A DNA stretch of 64,000 nt from Myxococcota bacterium (GTDB taxonomy: Bacteria > Myxococcota_A > UBA9160 > JAFDDA01): NCBI GenBank assembly GCA_965228475.1, contig OZ245817.1, positions 4,864,001 to 4,928,000 on the forward strand, written 5' to 3'. This document shows positions 50,413 through 61,158 of this stretch, one piece after another; position 1 is the stretch's first letter, and each line of letters opens with the position of its first letter. Below the pieces are notes generated by a model that was not told the DNA's origin, ran no database searches, and worked only from the letters and a program-made list of their open reading frames with translations. Both the position numbers and the translations under genes were made by a program.

Positions 50413-53238
<2,826 letters not shown>

Positions 53239-53266
53239 GGCGGCCCGGCCCCGGGTGGCGGCGGCG

Positions 53267-54322
53267 CTAGGGGGCAAGGGGCGAGAGCCCGCGCTGACCC
53301 TCCAGCTGCGTCGGATCCGCGGCCTGCTCCGAGCCCAGCCGGGCCGCCTGGGAGAAGACGCCCTTGCGCTCGATGTAGGTTCGCCCGCGGAGCTCTTCCA
53401 TCCACTTCTCGTACTCGGTCTCGAGCCGCTCGTTGTAGATCTCGGTGTAGAGGTCCTGCTCGACGTCCGCGTAGTCCACGCGCTCGAAGCCGCGCCGCTC
53501 GACGACCTGGAAGAGGTTGCAGCCGAAGGGCATCTCGATCACTTCGGAGACGCCGCCGACGGGCAGGCCGCGCACCGCGTCCGCCATCCACGGCGCGATG
53601 TCCTCTTCGTGCACCCAGCCGACGTCGCCGCCGTTCTGGGGGTTCATGTCCGAGATTTCGCGCGCCACGGTGACGAAGTCCTCCCCGCCCTGGATGCGCA
53701 CGAGGCCGGCGCGCGTGCTCCCGCAGGCCTCCTCCATGCTGCGCGGGCCGTCCTTGCCGCCCGCGCGGACCAGGTGCCGCAGGTGCATCTCGTCGCCGCC
53801 GCTGCGCTGGCTCGCGTAGCGCCGGGCGTAGAGCTCCTTCACTTCCTTTTCTTCGATCTGGACCTTCGACCGCACCATCCCGTTCAGGATCTTCGTGCGC
53901 TGGATCTCGCCGCGGATCTTCTCGCGGTACTCCTCGAAGTCGACGTCGTGACTCTCGAGGCTCTCCTTGAGCTGATCCATCGTGATGCCGTTCTCGGTGG
54001 CGATGCTCTCGATGGCGGCGTCGATCTCGGCGTCGCTCGCCTCGAGCTCCATGTTCCGCACCACCTGCTCGACGAGCCGCCGCTCGATCAGCCGCTCGAG
54101 CATGTCCGAGCGGATCATGTCGATGTCGCGGTCCGTCGCGCCGGCGGCGCGCATCTTCTCTTCCATCGGGTCGGTGACGCGCGTGACCTCGGAGATCAGC
54201 ACGACGTCGGAGCCGACCTGCGCGGCGATCCCGTCGATCAGCTCCTCGGTCGCGGCGCCCGCGGGCGGTGCGGCGAGCGCGGCGGCGGTGAAGAGCGCGA
54301 GTGCGGAAAGCGGACGCAGCAT
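53267..54322 (-). CDS. SurA-like peptidyl-prolyl isomerase/chaperone
   Basis: Signal peptide, IDGIAAQV, parvulin GGDVGW. Confidence 0.85.
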
Positions 54323-54401
54323 GAGACCTCCGAGGTTCGGACACCGCACGGTGACCCTCGGGTTCGGACCGATCGCGAGGGGGCGGGGGTGCGCCGGGAT
54401 C

Positions 54402-55895
54402 TTAACTTGGCTCGGGGATCGGGTCTCGGGCCGTGTCGAGGGGGGGCTCGGCCTCGAGGCGGGCGCGCGCGCGGGCGAGGCGGGTTCGCCGCGCCTTCGG
54501 TTCCAAGGGATGGAAGGGCTCCATGCGGCGCGCGGCGCGGCCTTCGCCGCGGGGCTTCGCCGGGCCCGCTGCGCCCGGGGTCTTCTCCGCGCGGGCGAGG
54601 ACGTCGCGGCAGGTCCGCCAGAGGGTCGCCCGATCGGCCTTGCCGGGGCGAAGCTCGAGCGGCGGCTCCGGGCCCACGGCCAGGGCGTCCGGCCCCGCCG
54701 GCTCGCAGCCGGCGATGGGGAGCCCCTGCCCGATCCGCGCCACCGGCCGGCCGCTCGCGGCAAGCTCCGGGCAGCGCCGGGAGAGGTAGCGGGCACCCGC
54801 CAGGTAGTGGCCGTTGGTGACGACCCTCCGGCCCGCGGCGTCCCGGGCCCCGAAGGAGAGCTGGCGGTAGCGCTTGGGCTCGCCGCAGAAATCCATCCCG
54901 GCCAGGACGAAGCGGGCGGCGCCGAGCTCGGCGGCCAGGGCGAGCATGGTTTCCGAGACGGTCGTGACGGGCTCCGCGAGCACGGGCAGGCCCGCGCGCT
55001 GCCACGCCACCTGGTGGAGGTGGGGCGTCTCCAGGTGGAAGAGCACGGTCTTCCCGGGCCAGCGGTCGAGCAGCGCGGGCCGGACCGAGGTGTCGGCGAG
55101 CAGCACGCCGAAGTCGCCCGCGAGACCCTCGACGAAGGTCTCGAACTCGTGAGGGTCCGGCGCCACCACGAAGTCGGCGGTGACGCCCGCTTCCTCGAGC
55201 GGACGAAGCGCCTGGAGCGCGGCGAAGACGACGCCCCCCTCGCGGCGGCGAAGGGCCGCGAGGGCCTCCGCGTCGAGGGAGGGCCCCGGGGAGATGCAGA
55301 GAGCCGTCCGTCCGGCGCAGCACCCGGCGAGCTCCGCAGCCGTTCGTAGGTAGGGGATGCGCTCGAGCGCATCGATCGCGCGTTCGCTCACGACGGCGTC
55401 GCGCACGCGGAGCGGCTCGCGGGCTCCGCCGCCGAGTTCCGAGCGCGCAGCTTCGACGAGCCGCGCCGCGATGACGCGCGCCTCGAACCGGCACAGCTCG
55501 GTGTAGCCCGGGTGCAGCAGCAGCCGGCTCCCGCGCCGCCGCCCGGGGCACGCTTCGAGCCAGCGGTCGAGCGCTTCGAGATCCGAGACGACCGGCACCG
55601 GGGACGGCACGCGCTGCGCGCCGAGCTCGCCGGTGATCTCGGGGAACGGATCGAAGGCCACGGCGTCCGCGCCGACCGCCGCGAGGGCTTCGGGCACGTA
55701 GCCGAGCCCCAACCCGAGGAGCACCAGGCCGCCGCCGCCCGCAAGCTCGCCGGCCGCCCCCCGAGCGAAGCCCTCCGCCTCCCGCCGCGGCGCATAGCGG
55801 CTGTGGACGAAGCGCTCGCCGATCCGGAGCGTCGGCTCCCCGTCCCGGGAAGCCTCCGTCGCCCACTCGATCCCGGGCACCGCCGCTTGACTCAA
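54402..55895 (-). CDS. DUF115 / MAF_flag10-like protein
   Basis: [26 protein letters not shown] motifs; TTG start with RBS. Confidence 0.7.
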
Positions 55896-56092
55896 TCCGG
55901 GCCCCTCCCTGCCCCTCACTTCGGTGCAACTCGCCGGCAGGTTGAGCCGGAGAGGGGCGCCTGGAGCGCCCTCTCCACGGCACCGCAAGAATTGGACCTC
56001 GATCGGCGGCCAAAATGGGAAGTAGGTACTTGATGCAATGGCGCACCAGTCCACCGGACCGCAGTCTTCGCTGTTAGTTCGGCGTGAGCGGC

Positions 56093-56464
56093 CTAGTCCG
56101 TCAGGTTCTTGGAGCGGATCTCGTGAGCGTGAACTCCGGACTCAATCTCGTTGATGAGCTTGAGCACCGCCTCGGTGGCGTCGCCCGCCTGTTGACGCAT
56201 GTGGATCCCTAGGTGGCCGATCAGCTCAACGGCTCGTTGCGCGAACTCGTGGAGCGTTGAGAGGTCGGCGATCTGCCGCTCCCGCAGCTCGTCGGTCAGG
56301 GCGTAGAGATTCGACGCGGTGGAGGCCGCGCCGAGCACGTCCGTGACCCAGGCGTTCGTGCTCTTGCCGGAGCGCGCCGCCGCAACCGAGACGGCCCGGT
56401 GAACCTCGGGACTCATCCGAATGCCCATCATCACCCGTTCGGTTTTCTCGGGGGTTGTAGTCAA
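56093..56464 (-). CDS. Arc/HicB-like ribbon-helix-helix DNA-binding protein
   Basis: TTG start after GGAGGGAG; GIRMSPEVHRAVSVAAARSGKSTNAWV RHH pattern. Confidence 0.7.
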   Translation of the reverse strand: MTTTPEKTERVMMGIRMSPEVHRAVSVAAARSGKSTNAWVTDVLGAASTASNLYALTDELRERQIADLSTLHEFAQRAVELIGHLGIHMRQQAGDATEAVLKLINEIESGVHAHEIRSKNLTD

Positions 56465-56483
56465 AGCTCCCTCCCTGGCGATT

Positions 56484-56573
56484 TGGCGGAGAGGGTGGGA
56501 TTCGAACCCACGGGGGGTGTAGGCCCCCAGGCGATTTTGAGTCGCCCGCCTTAAGCCGCTCGGCCACCTCTCC
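56484..56573 (-). tRNA. tRNA with a tRNA-Ser body and CAA (Leu) anticodon
   Basis: GGAGAGG TG GCC-GAGCGGCTTAA-GGC G GGCGA-CTCAAAA-TCGCC T GGGGG-CCTACA-CCCCC C GTGGG-TTCGAAT-CCCAC CCTCTCC G CCA; all stems pair; G73 and encoded CCA. Confidence 0.92.
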
Positions 56574-56632
56574 GCCGTGATAGCGGAGTTAGCAACCAGG
56601 CATCTGATACGCAAGAAATCTCGCACCCGCCC

Positions 56633-56670
56633 AAAAAAAGCGGGGCACGGGTCCTACACCCCCGTGCCCC
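56633..56670 (-). terminator. Intrinsic terminator upstream of the tRNA
   Basis: Perfect 10-bp stem ggggcacggg/cccgtgcccc followed by 7 U on the minus strand. Confidence 0.85.
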
Positions 56671-56809
56671 TAGTTCGCGGTGGCCGAGCGGCCTAGTCCG
56701 CGTAACAGTCTTCCTCCGCTAGAGCGGATGGTCTTGGCGGCCCCTTTAGGGGGAGGTGTCCTTCACGACAACTCGCGTGTTACACCACCGCACTCGTGGG
56801 TCGCAAGTA
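56633..56809 (-). ncRNA. Putative structured sRNA/leader with anti-tRNA segments
   Basis: Nested stems 56677-83/56785-91 and 56702-07/56778-83 enclose three hairpins; bounded by a promoter-like element and a terminator. Confidence 0.55.
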
Positions 56810-56814
56810 TCCAG

Positions 56815-56842
56815 ATTCTAAGCAATTTCCGTGCCTTGACAA
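56815..56842 (-). promoter_or_regulatory. Sigma70-like promoter for the sRNA/tRNA unit
   Basis: TTGTCA-N16-TAGAAT on the minus strand, overlapped by an inverted repeat at 56831-56859. Confidence 0.55.
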
Positions 56843-56937
56843 GTCGTGTCAAAAGGCACTGGAAATCAACATCTTTCCAAGCGCGTTGGATGGCTGCGGC
56901 GGAACGAAAGTTCACTACTTGGGAACTATCTTCTTAT

Positions 56938-56966
56938 TTGCAATAAAGTAAAAGATACTGTATCGT
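56938..56966 (+). promoter_or_regulatory. Sigma70-like promoter for a probably leaderless transposase mRNA
   Basis: TTGCAA-N17-TATCGT, 7 nt before ATG 56974. Confidence 0.5.
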
Positions 56967-56973
56967 CTTGGGT

Positions 56974-57966
56974 ATGGCGAAGAAGCACCCCCGCAACCCG
57001 ATCCTCGACGCGCTCCGCGAGGCAAGCCAGGACGAGGCGAAGGCCGTCGAGCTGCTTGAGGCTCGCCGCTTCGGCGACACGCCCGGCTGCCCCCGTTGCG
57101 GGGACACCGACGTCTACAAGATGCGGGACCGAAAGACGGGCGAGCGCGAGAAGAACTACCGATGGCGCTGCCGCGGCTGCAAGAAGATGTTCACGGTTCG
57201 CACCGGGACGATATTCGAGGAGACGCGGCTGCCGCTGCGCGTGTGGGTCTACGCTTTCTGGAAAGCGTGCGCGTCGAAGAAGGGTATCAGCGCCCTACAG
57301 ATCAGCCGGGAGTGCGAGATCAGCTACAAGAGCGCGCTCTATCTCATGCACCGCATCCGATATGCCATGCTCGAAGATCCCAGTGGCCAGCCGAAGCTCT
57401 CCGGCACGGTCGAAGTTGACGAGACGTTCGTCGGCGGAAAGCCGCGCCACTCCGTCCGAACGAAGATCAACCCGGTCACCGGAATGAAGCACCAGTACCT
57501 CCCGGCCTCCGCGAAGCCTGGTGGTTCGCCGAAGGTTCCCGTCGTTGCTCTGGTCGAGCGTGGAGGCCGTGTCCGTGCGCGTCAGATTGAGCGGGTGGAT
57601 CGCGAGTCTCTAGGCGGTGCCGTCCACGAGCTGGTCGAGTCTGGCGCAACGATCCATACCGATGAGAACCCGAGCTACCGCCACCTCGGCGCGCGCTACT
57701 CGCACGACTCCGTGAACCACACGCGGAAGGAGTACGTTCGTGGCGATGTGACTACCAACACGGTGGAAGGTTTCTTCTCCCTGCTCAAGCGTGGCGTCTA
57801 CGGGACGTTCCACTCCGTGAGCAAGCATCATCTTCATCGCTATCTGGCCGAGTTTGAGTTTCGGTACAACCACCGAGAACTCGACGACGGGGCGCGGACC
57901 CTCGCCGCTATCGACGGGGGAGAAGGGAAGCGCCTTTTGTATGAGCGATCTCCGACAACGGTCTAG
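56974..57966 (+). CDS. IS1595-family DDE transposase
   Basis: Zn ribbon CPRC...CRGC, RTGTIFE, EVDETFVGG, HTDE, VNH, TNTVEGFFSLLKRG, YLAEFEFRYN. Confidence 0.95.
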   Translation: MAKKHPRNPILDALREASQDEAKAVELLEARRFGDTPGCPRCGDTDVYKMRDRKTGEREKNYRWRCRGCKKMFTVRTGTIFEETRLPLRVWVYAFWKACASKKGISALQISRECEISYKSALYLMHRIRYAMLEDPSGQPKLSGTVEVDETFVGGKPRHSVRTKINPVTGMKHQYLPASAKPGGSPKVPVVALVERGGRVRARQIERVDRESLGGAVHELVESGATIHTDENPSYRHLGARYSHDSVNHTRKEYVRGDVTTNTVEGFFSLLKRGVYGTFHSVSKHHLHRYLAEFEFRYNHRELDDGARTLAAIDGGEGKRLLYERSPTTV

Positions 57967-57990
57967 TGGCGTACAGCTCCAACTTAAGCT

Positions 57991-58458
57991 CTAGCCCTGG
58001 ATCGTCACGCTGTGCTGCTTGATCTCAATGAAGAGTCTTCGGTCCTTCGCAGTCAGCCTGCGGTTGTGCTCCAGCTCGATCAGCTCAAGAGAGTGCTTGA
58101 CGCGGGCAAGCTCGCTCGCCTTGGTCTCGTTGCATTCGAGCGAGACCACGCCGAGGTTGCGCATTTTTGTGCGGCTACCCTTCGGCAGCCGTCGACTCGT
58201 CACCTCCTTGAAGTCCTTGTAGTTTCGTGTGACCAGAACCGCTCCGAGGTCATTCCCCGCCATCGCGATGACCTCGTCGGGTGACTGAAGGAGAAGGAGA
58301 TCGGAAACGTGGACGGTCTCGTGGTGCGCCGCCTTCAGTTCGTCGGCAACCCACAGGGGGACGTTCTCATCAATAAGGAAACGGATCCGTGGCTTGAGGC
58401 TCGGGTCAGCCGGCCTTGCGTCGTCGTGAGCGTTCGTCTCGGATCGCTGCCTTGACAT
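57991..58458 (-). CDS. DUF5615-family PIN-like toxin (start uncertain)
   Basis: FLIDENV, PDEVI, LVTRNYKDF acidic PIN motifs; downstream of a DUF433 gene. Confidence 0.8.
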   Translation of the reverse strand: MSRQRSETNAHDDARPADPSLKPRIRFLIDENVPLWVADELKAAHHETVHVSDLLLLQSPDEVIAMAGNDLGAVLVTRNYKDFKEVTSRRLPKGSRTKMRNLGVVSLECNETKASELARVKHSLELIELEHNRRLTAKDRRLFIEIKQHSVTIQG

Positions 58459-59047
58459 CCTTCTCAGTCAGTGTCGGGAAGCCGTCTACGATCTCTTCAA
58501 CGGTCATCCCAGAGCTGAAGTACCGCCAGATCAAACTGCTGGGAATCCGTGTTCCTGCAATCACTTGACGCCCGTTGAGGACATTCCTCCGTTTCGAGAG
58601 TTTCCCGATATCGGAGTCCTTCCGTGACCGCTTGCGCTTCAGAAGCCGCACGGTGTCGCTCCGCACTTCCTCAAGGTCGATCACCAGGATCGGGGTTTGC
58701 CTGTGAGGTTTCGTTGAGACGACTTCGTCAGTCCTAGGATCTCGGTACAGAAGCTCCTTCCCGGACAGAAAGAACTTGATGCTGGCCCACGGGTTGGGGT
58801 GATCTTCGTGAAACTCCTCATGGAGCGCACGATCTACCTTCCGAAGCTCTTGGAGGGGCACCCGCGTCCTGATCGGCGCGATGGCGCGAAGACCCACCAG
58901 GTCCCGGAACGAGTACACCCTTCGGTCGTCAACCAGGTACTCAGGGGAGAAGAAGTCAGTCTTGTCCCAGTATCGGAGTTGACGCTTGCTCAGTCCCGTC
59001 AGCTCCGCGACTTGGTCCTCGCCGAAGTAGGCGATCGAGTCAGTCAT
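58406..59047 (-). CDS. MerR-HTH + DUF433 antitoxin
   Basis: VAELTGLSKRQLRYWD HTH; C-terminal GRQVIAGTRIP...GMTVEEIVDGFPTLTEKDVKAA. Confidence 0.85.
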   Translation of the reverse strand: MTDSIAYFGEDQVAELTGLSKRQLRYWDKTDFFSPEYLVDDRRVYSFRDLVGLRAIAPIRTRVPLQELRKVDRALHEEFHEDHPNPWASIKFFLSGKELLYRDPRTDEVVSTKPHRQTPILVIDLEEVRSDTVRLLKRKRSRKDSDIGKLSKRRNVLNGRQVIAGTRIPSSLIWRYFSSGMTVEEIVDGFPTLTEKDVKAAIRDERSRRRKAG

Positions 59048-59222
59048 CCGAGCACACCCCTATTGTTGCGTCCGAGCGGTTCGCTACCGTTCGGACGTCG
59101 GATGTGCCGACAGAGATTCCTCCTAAGACCTCGCCGGGCCAGGGCGGGGTCTTTGGTTTTCTGGGCCACGGCGGAAACCGGCCCTTCGGGTAGTCTCACC
59201 CCCCACACGCTATATTCCCGCT

Positions 59223-59372
59223 GTGGCTGATCCGGTCAAGCGCCCCGGCCCCGAGCCGGAGACATTGAAGGTCGAAATCGACCCCGAAGAGGGGTTGGCT
59301 CGCCTCTTGCGCGCCCAGCCGAAGCCGCCTCCGAAGGCGAAGAAAAAGCCCTCGAAGCGCCGGAAGTCCTAG
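59223..59372 (+). CDS. Small basic protein, 49 aa (IS passenger)
   Basis: GTG 6 nt after TATATT; MADPVKRPGPEPETLKVEIDPEEGLARLLRAQPKPPPKAKKKPSKRRKS. Confidence 0.55.
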   Translation: MADPVKRPGPEPETLKVEIDPEEGLARLLRAQPKPPPKAKKKPSKRRKS

Positions 59373-59515
59373 TCCTGGCCCTCTAGGGCCGCAGCGATCC
59401 TCTCCAGCGCCTCAGCGATCCGCCCAAATACCTGAACGATATTCGGATCTTCTCCGATCTTGGGAACGCGGTTGAAGGCATCGTTGACAGCCTGTGCGAG
59501 TGAGTCCTTGCTCAT
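59369..59515 (-). CDS. Small hypothetical protein, 48 aa (IS passenger)
   Basis: MSKDSLAQAVNDAFNRVPKIGEDPNIVQVFGRIAEALERIAAALEGQD; stop overlaps the convergent ORF stop at CTAG. Confidence 0.45.
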   Translation of the reverse strand: MSKDSLAQAVNDAFNRVPKIGEDPNIVQVFGRIAEALERIAAALEGQD

Positions 59516-59670
59516 GGGTCACCAGGCTAACCGCAGGGCTCCGAACGCACAACGAACCGATAGACCGGCTACTTAGGCGATTCCAATGCAATTCCGCGGC
59601 ATTGCATTGGATCCATACTTCCGGCCAAAATGGAGCTTTCCGGGACGGATTGGTGCCCTAGGCTCTCGCC

Positions 59671-61158
59671 ATGCTCGAGTTCAGCTTCCAGCCCGATCGC
59701 ACCCGCCGGGAGCCCGTCTATCGCCAGCTCGAGGGGTATCTCCGCGAGCTCGTCGAGAGCCGCCGGCTCGCCGCGGGGGAGCGCCTACCCGCGAGCCGCG
59801 AGCTGGCCGCGGCCCTCGGGCTCTCGCGCAACACGGTGAACCAGGCCTATCAGGCGCTGGTCGACGACGGTCTGCTCGCCTCCCACGTCGGCCAGGGGAC
59901 CTTCGTGCAGCGCCAGCCGGGGCCGGCCCTGCGGCCGGTCGGGCCCGCGGCGCGCGGCTTTGCCTGGGCCGGGCTGTTCGCGCGCCGCACCGCGGCGGTC
60001 GCGCTTCCGCCGGCCATCCTCGCCGCCGGCCGCATGCCGAACCCGCCCTTCGACTTCCGCCCGGGCCACGTCGACCTCGCGACGATCCCGAAGACGGAGC
60101 TCCGCCGCGCGATGTCGAAGGCGACGGAGCAGGTCGAGATGCTCGCGACCTGCCAGGACCCGCGCGGCTGGTTTCCGCTGCGCGAGCAGATCGCGCGCGC
60201 GCTCGTCGGGCGCGGCATCCGCTGCGGCCCGGACGACGTCGCGGTGGTGAGCGGTGCGCAGCAGGCCCTCGATCTCACCGCGCGCGTGCTCCTCGACCCC
60301 GGCGACACCGTCGTGATGGAGCAGCCGGGCTACTTCGGCGCCGCGCTGGCCTTCGGCGCGAGCGAAGCGCACCTGGTCGGTGTCGGCGTGGACGAGCACG
60401 GGCTTCGCACGGACGAGCTCGCCCGCATCCTGCGCGCGCGCCGCGTGAAGCTCGTCTACACGACGCCGGCCGTGCAGAGCCCGACGGGCGTCGTGCTCTC
60501 CGACGAACGCCGCCGCGCGCTCCTCGACCTCGCCGACGAGTACCAGGTGCCCGTGGTCGAGGACGACTACGACAGCGAGCTGCGCTACGGCACGCCGCCG
60601 ACGCCGGCCCTGAAGACCCAGGACGAAGCGGGCCAGGTGATCTACGCCGGCACCTTCTCGAAGGCGCTCTTCGCCGGCATCCGCGTCGGCTACGTCGTGG
60701 CGGCGCAGCCCTTCCTGCTCCAGCTGATGGCGACGCGCCTGGCCGCGGACTTCCGCACGGACCTGCTCGCCCAGGCCGCCATGGCCGAGCTGCTCGAGAG
60801 CGGCGGCCTCGAGCGCCACGTGCGGCGCGTGCGCCGCCTCTACTCCGCGCGCCGCGCCGCGATGCTCGACGCCCTGCGCGCGCACATGCCCGAGGGCACC
60901 CACGTCACCGAACCCGCCGGCGGCAACACGGTCTGGGTGCGGCTTCCGTCGGGCATCGACGGGGCCGCCTTCCACGCCGCGGCCCTGGCCGCCGGGATCG
61001 AGTACGGACGCGGCGATCTCTTCCGCCTCGACGGGGCGAGCATCGACCACGCCCATCTTTCCTTCGCCCAGATGGGGCCGCGCAAGATCCAGGAAGGCGT
61101 CGCGCGCCTGGCCGATCTCGCCCGCTCCGAACTCCGCCGCGCCCGCGAAACCGCCTAG
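59671..61158 (+). CDS. MocR/GabR-type GntR regulator with PLP-dependent aminotransferase domain
   Basis: LPASRELAAALGLSRNTV, SGAQQAL, EDDYDSE, GTFSK. Confidence 0.92.
   Translation: MLEFSFQPDRTRREPVYRQLEGYLRELVESRRLAAGERLPASRELAAALGLSRNTVNQAYQALVDDGLLASHVGQGTFVQRQPGPALRPVGPAARGFAWAGLFARRTAAVALPPAILAAGRMPNPPFDFRPGHVDLATIPKTELRRAMSKATEQVEMLATCQDPRGWFPLREQIARALVGRGIRCGPDDVAVVSGAQQALDLTARVLLDPGDTVVMEQPGYFGAALAFGASEAHLVGVGVDEHGLRTDELARILRARRVKLVYTTPAVQSPTGVVLSDERRRALLDLADEYQVPVVEDDYDSELRYGTPPTPALKTQDEAGQVIYAGTFSKALFAGIRVGYVVAAQPFLLQLMATRLAADFRTDLLAQAAMAELLESGGLERHVRRVRRLYSARRAAMLDALRAHMPEGTHVTEPAGGNTVWVRLPSGIDGAAFHAAALAAGIEYGRGDLFRLDGASIDHAHLSFAQMGPRKIQEGVARLADLARSELRRARETA

Follow-up and report, generated by a model that had tools for sequence, protein, structure and literature searches.

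Two segments complementary to a serine-type tRNA with a leucine-codon anticodon in the leader upstream of its gene in a Myxococcota genome

Genomes, and often the mobile DNA in them, are yielding natural tRNAs that would mis-insert an amino acid, and the means by which cells tolerate or control such tRNAs are in question. The window analysed here, a stretch of 64,000 nucleotides (nt) from a Myxococcota bacterium (contig OZ245817.1, positions 4,864,001 to 4,928,000), raises this question at one locus. It contains a single tRNA gene, called Leu(CAA) by ARAGORN and Rfam, whose body is of the serine type (hereafter the odd tRNA). Upstream of it lies a region of 177 nt (56633-56809) that an earlier note had flagged as a structured RNA with two segments antisense to the tRNA, and had read as an RNA antitoxin or an attenuator. 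Does this region restrain a tRNA that may mistranslate, or does it merely record how the extra tRNA gene was assembled? Tentatively, we take the flagged 177 nt to be a leader that acts in cis, insulating a mis-sense tRNA and perhaps locking the 5' end of that tRNA. That the region is a scar of rearrangement without function has almost the same likelihood; an antitoxin acting in trans and a recombination site of a mobile cassette are less likely. The features that are needed first are the following.

56484 to 56573, minus strand: tRNA gene with a serine-type body and the anticodon CAA (Leu codon UUG), found by ARAGORN and Rfam
56679 to 56695, minus strand: anti-D segment, complementary to tRNA positions 6-22; 16 of 17 positions pair with 56552-56568, with one mismatch
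56649 to 56666, minus strand: anti-V segment, complementary to the variable arm; 14 of 15 positions (56649-56663 against 56513-56527), followed by GTG after a 1-nt gap
56633 to 56670, minus strand: intrinsic terminator with stem 56670-56661/56651-56642, loop 56660-56652 (GGUGUAGGA) and U7 at 56639-56633

Both antisense segments were recovered exactly as the earlier note had described them. The stretch 56679-56692 (GGTGGCCGAGCGGC) is the exact reverse complement, over 14 nt, of 56555-56568, which corresponds to tRNA positions 6-19, and 56653-56663 (CCTACACCCCC) repeats 56513-56523 (tRNA positions 51-61) in inverted form, exactly over 11 nt and extendable by the GTG after the gap. The anti-V segment covers the loop of the strong minus-strand terminator together with 3 nt of its 5' arm, again in agreement with the note. 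When the 297-nt upstream region was shuffled 2000 times with its dinucleotides preserved, a match of at least 14 nt never appeared in either orientation, nor did a second match of at least 11 nt. An inverted copy of at least 11 nt within 350 nt upstream was found for two of the 59 ARAGORN tRNA calls in the genome, namely the odd tRNA and one doubtful call (no. 39, 12 nt), the odd tRNA being the only credible one. Both anti-tRNA segments are real, far beyond chance, and they lie on the strand that would be cotranscribed with the tRNA. Their most likely source is local copying, with the tRNA gene and the sequence upstream of it as the two partners. Their order along the RNA (anti-D, anti-V, D, V) is unlike that expected from a single inverted duplication, a misfit that had already been pointed out.

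The odd tRNA has the acceptor sequence GGAGAGG, G73, a long variable arm and an encoded CCA, and it is identical to the tRNA-Ser(GGA) of the genome over its first 27 and its last 30 nt. The four nearest tRNAs in the genome are all serine tRNAs (68-73/90), whereas the true tRNA-Leu(CAA), which the genome also carries in normal form, reaches 59/90. Because seryl-tRNA synthetase, as described in PMC11028032, does not read the anticodon, the odd tRNA is predicted from its sequence to insert serine at UUG. This codon accounts for 2.2% of Leu codons, or about 2.2 per 1000 codons, in 1201 long open frames with high GC content at third positions, and the toxicity of the odd tRNA is therefore uncertain. 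The acceptor/T arrangement is the ordinary 7/5 one both in ARAGORN and in the Rfam alignment. Neither ARAGORN nor the Rfam tRNA model found a plus-strand tRNA or pseudogene, the minus-strand tRNA being the only one recognised. Identical sequence across the tRNA and the leader is present in contigs of three public runs from two studies; these contigs possibly come from the assembly's own sample and are perhaps not independent. An invertible switch at the 17-nt inverted pair was considered and rejected, as the contigs of the three runs showed no strand-changing joint. As a separate observation, the GGC just 5' of the tRNA pairs with G73-C74-C75 (56485-56494/56567-56576), giving a 10-bp acceptor helix in the precursor, and this extended helix could alter cleavage by RNase P.

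What kind of unit carries the two segments follows from the remaining parts of the region between the promoter-like site and the tRNA.

56815 to 56842, minus strand: promoter-like site TTGTCA (56842-56837), 16-nt spacer, TAGAAT (56820-56815); predicted start near 56808
56826 to 56864, no strand assigned: palindrome over the -35 box, core TTGACA-5-TGTCAA, outer arms GTGCCTT/AAGGCAC; 12-nt arms, 83% complementary
56701 to 56808, minus strand: leader 5' domain, non-coding, with hairpin folds (fold predictions; no gene-like open frame)
56574 to 56632, minus strand: spacer with a weak promoter-like site TTGCGT (56614-56609), 17 nt, TAACTC (56591-56586), identified by eye

The flagged 56633-56809 is a promoter-to-terminator unit of about 175 nt, non-coding and on the minus strand, as the tRNA is. 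The promoter-like site TTGTCA-16-TAGAAT that the note had named on this strand is indeed present; it matches at 10 of 12 positions (shuffles averaged 0.2 such sites) and is akin, in a by-eye reading, to the TTGAC(A/G)-17-TAnnnT found upstream of the genome's tRNA genes. As judged from the sequence, the leader promoter is probably strong and regulated, and the palindrome 56826-56864 may be a candidate operator, perhaps for the ribbon-helix-helix (RHH) protein encoded downstream of the tRNA. No coding remnant was seen in the six frames of the leader, an 88-residue plus-strand open reading frame in its 5' domain had no Pfam match, and neither a leader peptide nor a ligand-type element was found in it.

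The terminator consists of a 10-bp stem in which all positions are complementary, a 9-nt loop and U7, and ends 59 nt ahead of the tRNA. In the predicted fold its pair probabilities are 0.97-1.0 and the loop is unpaired with a probability of at least 0.95. With a promoter-like site on one side of this hairpin and U tract and a tRNA gene of the same orientation on the other, the layout is that of a terminator leader. When the terminator was forbidden, the best leader fold reached -65.7 instead of -79.0 kcal/mol, i.e. it was 13.3 kcal/mol worse. In these models the terminator looks constitutive, and nothing favours a conditional attenuator. The proposal that the region gates read-through into the tRNA is consistent with the anatomy of promoter, leader and terminator, but its conditional part found no support in view of the constitutive terminator. 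The fold with closing stems proposed for the region is feasible (-75.8 kcal/mol when enforced) but is not the minimum-energy fold (-79.0 kcal/mol). The tRNA's own promoter-like site, in the spacer, is poor: its -10-like box ends in C, whereas by eye the -10 boxes of the other tRNA genes end in T. The promoter scan did not report TTGCGT-17-TAACTC, which was found only by eye against other tRNA upstream regions.

The behaviour of a transcript that runs through the terminator was then assessed by folding. For the read-through transcript, the minimum-energy fold lies at -160.9 kcal/mol (z -4.66); it joins 17 consecutive nt of the tRNA to the leader and leaves the acceptor stem unformed, whereas the tRNA with only the 59-nt proximal leader is predicted to form the cloverleaf. 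When 48 tRNAs were each folded together with the 236 nt upstream of them, the odd tRNA ranked first in the length of the leader-tRNA helix (17) and in energy gain (-16.8 kcal/mol). Duplex folding, which the earlier note had proposed as a check, was informative in part: the unrestricted comparison of the upstream region with the tRNA told nothing, whereas the windowed one singled out only the anti-D segment, where the duplex reaches -42.8 kcal/mol against -32.9 (sd 3.0) in shuffles.

For the cis-acting leader that we tentatively favour, these properties would combine as follows. Transcripts from the strong upstream promoter would mostly stop at the constitutive terminator, and the tRNA would therefore be insulated, relying on leak-through or on its own poor promoter. 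In a precursor made by read-through, the anti-D segment would pair with the 5' acceptor/D region of the tRNA, an interaction that would rival the cloverleaf and slow maturation at the 5' end. Overall, a tRNA that potentially mistranslates, with serine at UUG, would be held at a low level. If termination and base pairing do restrain the tRNA in this way, the locus would be a first case of a mis-sense tRNA that comes with its own RNA brake.

Several observations weigh against such a brake. The anti-D segment is mostly base-paired in a local leader hairpin in the predicted fold; sequestered there, it would be transcribed about 110 nt ahead of its target. The acceptor stem is lost in silico in 22 of the 47 other tRNAs of this GC-rich genome too, and tRNA-Cys (-16.0 kcal/mol) and tRNA-Sec (-14.7 kcal/mol) come close to the odd tRNA in energy gain. 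The leader fold predictions contained no antiterminator fold that rivals the terminator. The opposite strand of the leader folds equally well (z -2.8, against -2.9 on the tRNA strand), and since the two values are nearly equal, the structured nature of the region is not strand-specific evidence. The leader is known from a single locus, no homologue of it having been found in the genomes and contigs searched, and four other Ser-like tRNA(CAA) genes described below (L030, L087, L136 and L146) show no such upstream element. Finally, the anti-D segment lies in a direct repeat within a rearranged region, which fits a neutral origin.

Complementarity to a tRNA could also be used in trans, as the earlier note had proposed. 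The terminated RNA of about 175 nt would then bind the mature or nascent odd tRNA and keep it from being charged by seryl-tRNA synthetase or from being used, the first contact would be kissing of the terminator loop with the variable-arm loop, and the two RNAs would form an RNA-RNA toxin-antitoxin pair. We regard this as distinctly unlikely, and the specificity of the two segments is central to the assessment. The anti-V segment is specific to the odd tRNA, which it fits at 14/15 positions, the next best tRNA reaching 11/15, and the single-stranded terminator loop GGUGUAGGA carries an exact complement to CCUACA, the 6-nt loop of the variable arm, and to flanking bases. The sequence signals for a discrete RNA are present, the neighbourhood is rich in toxin-antitoxin-like genes, and tRNAs of serine identity with foreign anticodons near toxin-antitoxin genes are described in PMC5389517. 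The anti-D segment, in contrast, fits the normal tRNA-Ser(GGA) and the odd tRNA equally (16/17 each), and Ser(UGA) and Ser(GCU) at 14/17; pairing through it would therefore not be specific. In addition, tRNA folding leaves the D region unavailable, base pairs within the leader occupy the anti-D segment as well, and the order of the segments is reversed relative to what one antiparallel duplex would need. Even the kissing potential is not independent evidence, because any inverted copy of a hairpin has a complementary loop. The small share of UUG among Leu codons given above also leaves the toxicity uncertain. What stood of the antitoxin proposal is the complementarity itself, with its exact 14 and 11 nt; paired, unspecific and in the wrong order, the anti-D segment speaks against the rest. 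From the fold models, the contact of the terminator loop with the variable-arm loop is the only plausible and specific one in trans.

The surroundings of the unit bear on how the segments came about.

56093 to 56440, minus strand: RHH gene, 115 amino acids, N-terminal ribbon-helix-helix of the HicB-family C-terminal type (PF05534, E 9.3e-08, residues 7-36)
56075 to 56100, no strand assigned: direct repeat copy A, made of TAGTTCG, GCGT and GAGCGGCCTAGTCCG; it spans the RHH stop codon
56671 to 56700, no strand assigned: direct repeat copy B, made of TAGTTCG, CGGTGGCC and GAGCGGCCTAGTCCG; it holds the anti-D segment

Two direct repeats of 26-30 nt, 600 bp apart, bracket the terminator, the tRNA and the RHH gene, which follows the tRNA immediately and is read from the same strand. 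In the whole 5.0-Mb genome the 15-mer GAGCGGCCTAGTCCG has just two sites, 56086-56100 and 56686-56700, and the repeat alignment scores 31, against a mean of 18.5 (sd 2.4) and a maximum of 30 in shuffles (n=300). The copies differ solely in a clustered middle tract, and this tract extends the anti-D match from 7 to 14 nt. Because the difference between the repeat copies is what lengthens the match to the tRNA, the sequence suggests that the anti-D segment originated through rearrangement or copying on a local scale; in which direction the change went is not inferable from two copies.

These observations are the core of the view that the region is a scar without function, in which the inverted copies are by-products of the building of the islet and of its extra tRNA, for instance by partial inverted duplication or by template switching between imperfect inverted repeats close to each other, and the promoter and terminator are what is left of an older transcription unit, now truncated. 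We consider this a serious possibility. It accounts for an anti-D segment that sits within a direct repeat whose 15-nt core exists only twice in the genome, for the clustered difference that takes the tRNA match from 7 to 14 nt, and for an order of segments that suits no single functional duplex. On the other hand, the copies are still perfect over 14 and 11 nt, they have different centres of symmetry and would need two events, and one of them is built into a well-formed terminator. A longer tandem-duplication remnant, aligning the leader with the 3' end of the RHH gene, was tried and rejected as not significant (score 50-56, shuffle maximum 55-56), and such inverted copies are not seen at the ordinary tRNAs examined in this genome or in the second genome introduced below.

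The direct repeats could instead be attachment-type sites of a mobile 600-bp cassette made of terminator, tRNA and RHH gene, and the likeness to the tRNA would then reflect the choice of site and not RNA pairing. The perfect 15-nt and 7-nt direct repeats do bracket this unit exactly, and one of them provides the stop codon of the RHH gene. However, no integrase or recombinase is present among the open frames listed across 53000-60500, and the six frames that were scanned with Pfam gave only RHH/HicB, IS1595 transposase, DUF5615/PIN-like, DUF433 with MerR, MptE-like and GntR-aminotransferase. The genome contains no further copy of the repeat or of the cassette, matches to the 15-mer in viral contigs have no common flanks, and the variable-arm copy is left unexplained. 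We find a cassette site very unlikely.

The leader is part of a small foreign module that consists of the promoter with its palindrome, the leader, the terminator, the tRNA and the RHH regulator gene. This module lies in a low-GC islet of about 3.7 kb (about 55,900-59,650), with a GC content of 0.55-0.65 compared with about 0.75 in the flanks. In a genome of the same family the islet is absent, and the flanking genes, MptE-like and GntR-aminotransferase, are about 220 nt apart. The genes of the islet encode the RHH protein, an IS1595 transposase divergent from the leader, a DUF5615/PIN-like protein and a DUF433-MerR protein. Both the absence of the islet from the same-family genome and the presence of the IS1595 transposase in it agree with a rearrangement scar.

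Further observations on the islet stand on their own. The overlapping genes at 57991-59047 (minus strand) for a DUF433/MerR-type helix-turn-helix protein and a DUF5615/PIN-like protein form a toxin-antitoxin-like pair beside the transposase. The RHH gene has no adjoining partner toxin gene, and the tRNA fills the slot upstream of it; a search of 5.8 billion proteins for relatives of the RHH protein returned only the protein itself. No terminal inverted repeats of the IS1595 element were found. At the left edge of the islet, a hairpin (GGAGAGGGGCGCC...GGCGCCCCTCTCC, 55946-55975) has arms equal to the acceptor stem of the tRNA (GGAGAGG/CCTCTCC) and may be the ghost of a tRNA copy, a similarity without statistical support. 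At the right edge, just upstream of the GntR-family gene, lies a near-perfect 30-nt palindrome (TCCAATGCAATTCCG / CGGCATTGCATTGGA, 59582-59611).

Does the arrangement occur elsewhere? The leader is single-copy in its own genome. Searches of 40 relatives gave only matches of at most 39 nt with E values of 6.7e-4 or higher, many of them to a D-arm-like stretch; 192 other genomes of the order gave none, plasmids and phages contained no match, and no known RNA family in Rfam matched the leader. The failure to find homologues among the relatives and in the order is in line with a scar. Two kinds of candidate were set aside as chance: a 22-nt exact match to 56657-56678 in a relative (G004), which lies in apparently coding DNA with dissimilar flanks, and matches in viral contigs to the leader 15-mer (10) and to an 18-mer (1), whose flanks are unshared.

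Tracing the tRNA itself was more productive. A pattern combining the Ser D arm with a CAA anticodon was absent from 400 other genomes of the phylum, had no match in viral contigs, and was present at 12 metagenome loci. A scan of genome contigs gave at least 119 matches, a few of the matches listed being bacterial; 112 of 119 anticodon loops among the matches listed read CTCAAGA, i.e. they are mostly those of archaeal tRNA-Leu(CAA). Together with the metagenome loci, the matches listed include at least five intact or near-intact Ser-like tRNA(CAA) genes (L030, L034, L087, L136 and L146). One of these, L034 from a metagenome-assembled genome of the Rhodospirillaceae (G530), is preceded at a distance of 4 nt by an inverted copy, perfect over 12 nt, of its own positions 2-13. 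Six other tRNAs at five fetched loci of G530 reach at most 8 nt, and the 79 other pattern loci in the matches listed, most of them archaeal tRNA-Leu(CAA), stay below 12 nt, a single one having 11 nt. The odd tRNA of L034 was absent from 24 other genomes of its order.

An inverted copy is hence present at two of six Ser-type tRNA(CAA) loci, counting the matches listed, a small number that is suggestive. Newly made tRNA copies are, however, also where scars of duplication should chiefly occur. The recurrence of a 5'-end inverted copy at an unrelated Ser-type tRNA(CAA), and its absence from the 79 other listed pattern loci, counts against a mere scar. Conversely, the copy at L034 abuts the tRNA with a 4-nt spacer, like the junction of a palindromic duplication, which is what a scar would leave.

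Some features of these loci are recorded separately. At L034, the 5' leader and the tRNA form a 12-bp hairpin (1527-1554 in locus coordinates) with the RNase P site in its 4-nt loop, and upstream lie a tRNA-Pro and a fragment of an IS1595-type transposase, divergent as in the window. L136, on a 391-kb metagenome contig (around 1269-1548), is a Ser-like tRNA(CAA) with a very long variable arm that ARAGORN did not call; an RHH gene is situated about 175 nt downstream of it, and 14 nt at the 5' end of the tRNA are complementary, with one mismatch, to the start region of this RHH gene. At L146, a PIN-RHH pair is located upstream of the tRNA.

Taken further, all parts of the leader could work together as a dedicated safety catch on a mistranslating tRNA, with the terminator, the 5' lock by the anti-D segment, and a released 175-nt RNA kissing the variable-arm loop, which seryl-tRNA synthetase requires. 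Only where the leader was not produced, or was broken down, would serine then be inserted at UUG, and the 12-nt 5' lock of L034 would represent a convergent version. Such a complete system is unlikely; if true, it would add a new mode of control, RNA acting on RNA, for a tRNA that a mobile islet carries. Should the region instead prove to be only a scar, it would still be a record of the assembly of an extra tRNA gene, with its direct repeats and adjoining inverted tRNA copies.

How does the locus compare with known systems? The cis-acting leader preferred here resembles attenuator leaders in the succession of a promoter, a non-coding leader, and a GC-rich hairpin with a U tract ahead of a downstream gene on the same strand. 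Unlike these, it has no antiterminator, leader peptide or ligand-type element, its downstream gene is a tRNA, and the terminator hairpin is an inverted copy of a part of that tRNA. T-box leaders are RNAs to which a tRNA is bound at two sites, the anticodon and the 3' end. The leader in the window likewise is complementary to a specific tRNA, but its complementarity is to the D and variable arms and not to the anticodon or the NCCA end, and the gene regulated would be the tRNA itself. The Rfam T-box model gave no match to it, either at the gathering score or at E values up to 10.

Plasmid antisense RNAs act by kissing of loops. For RNA-RNA toxin-antitoxin pairs, CreTA (PMC8501985) served as the comparison. 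With these systems and with type I toxin-antitoxin systems the locus shares a short RNA with promoter and terminator signals of its own and an exposed loop complementary to the loop of a neighbouring RNA; it differs in that the target would be a tRNA and not an mRNA, and in that the anti-D segment is not target-specific. Quasi-palindrome template-switch mutations are the class to be compared with a scar. As in these, a clustered change in one repeat copy extends a nearby inverted repeat, whereas the window has two inverted pairs with different centres, which would need two events.

No description of a leader antisense to its own tRNA was found in the literature, chiefly at the level of abstracts. 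The closest comparison for the tRNA itself is provided by the allo-tRNAs of Mukai et al. (PMC5389517), described there as tRNAs of serine identity with non-serine anticodons that occur near toxin-antitoxin genes and transposons; the word antisense is absent from the main text of that article. Allo-tRNAs have a 12-bp acceptor branch of the 8/4 or 9/3 type, whereas that of the tRNA in the window is 7/5. The window tRNA shares with them a serine-type body, in its case with the anticodon for a Leu codon, and a location beside toxin-antitoxin-like genes and a transposase.

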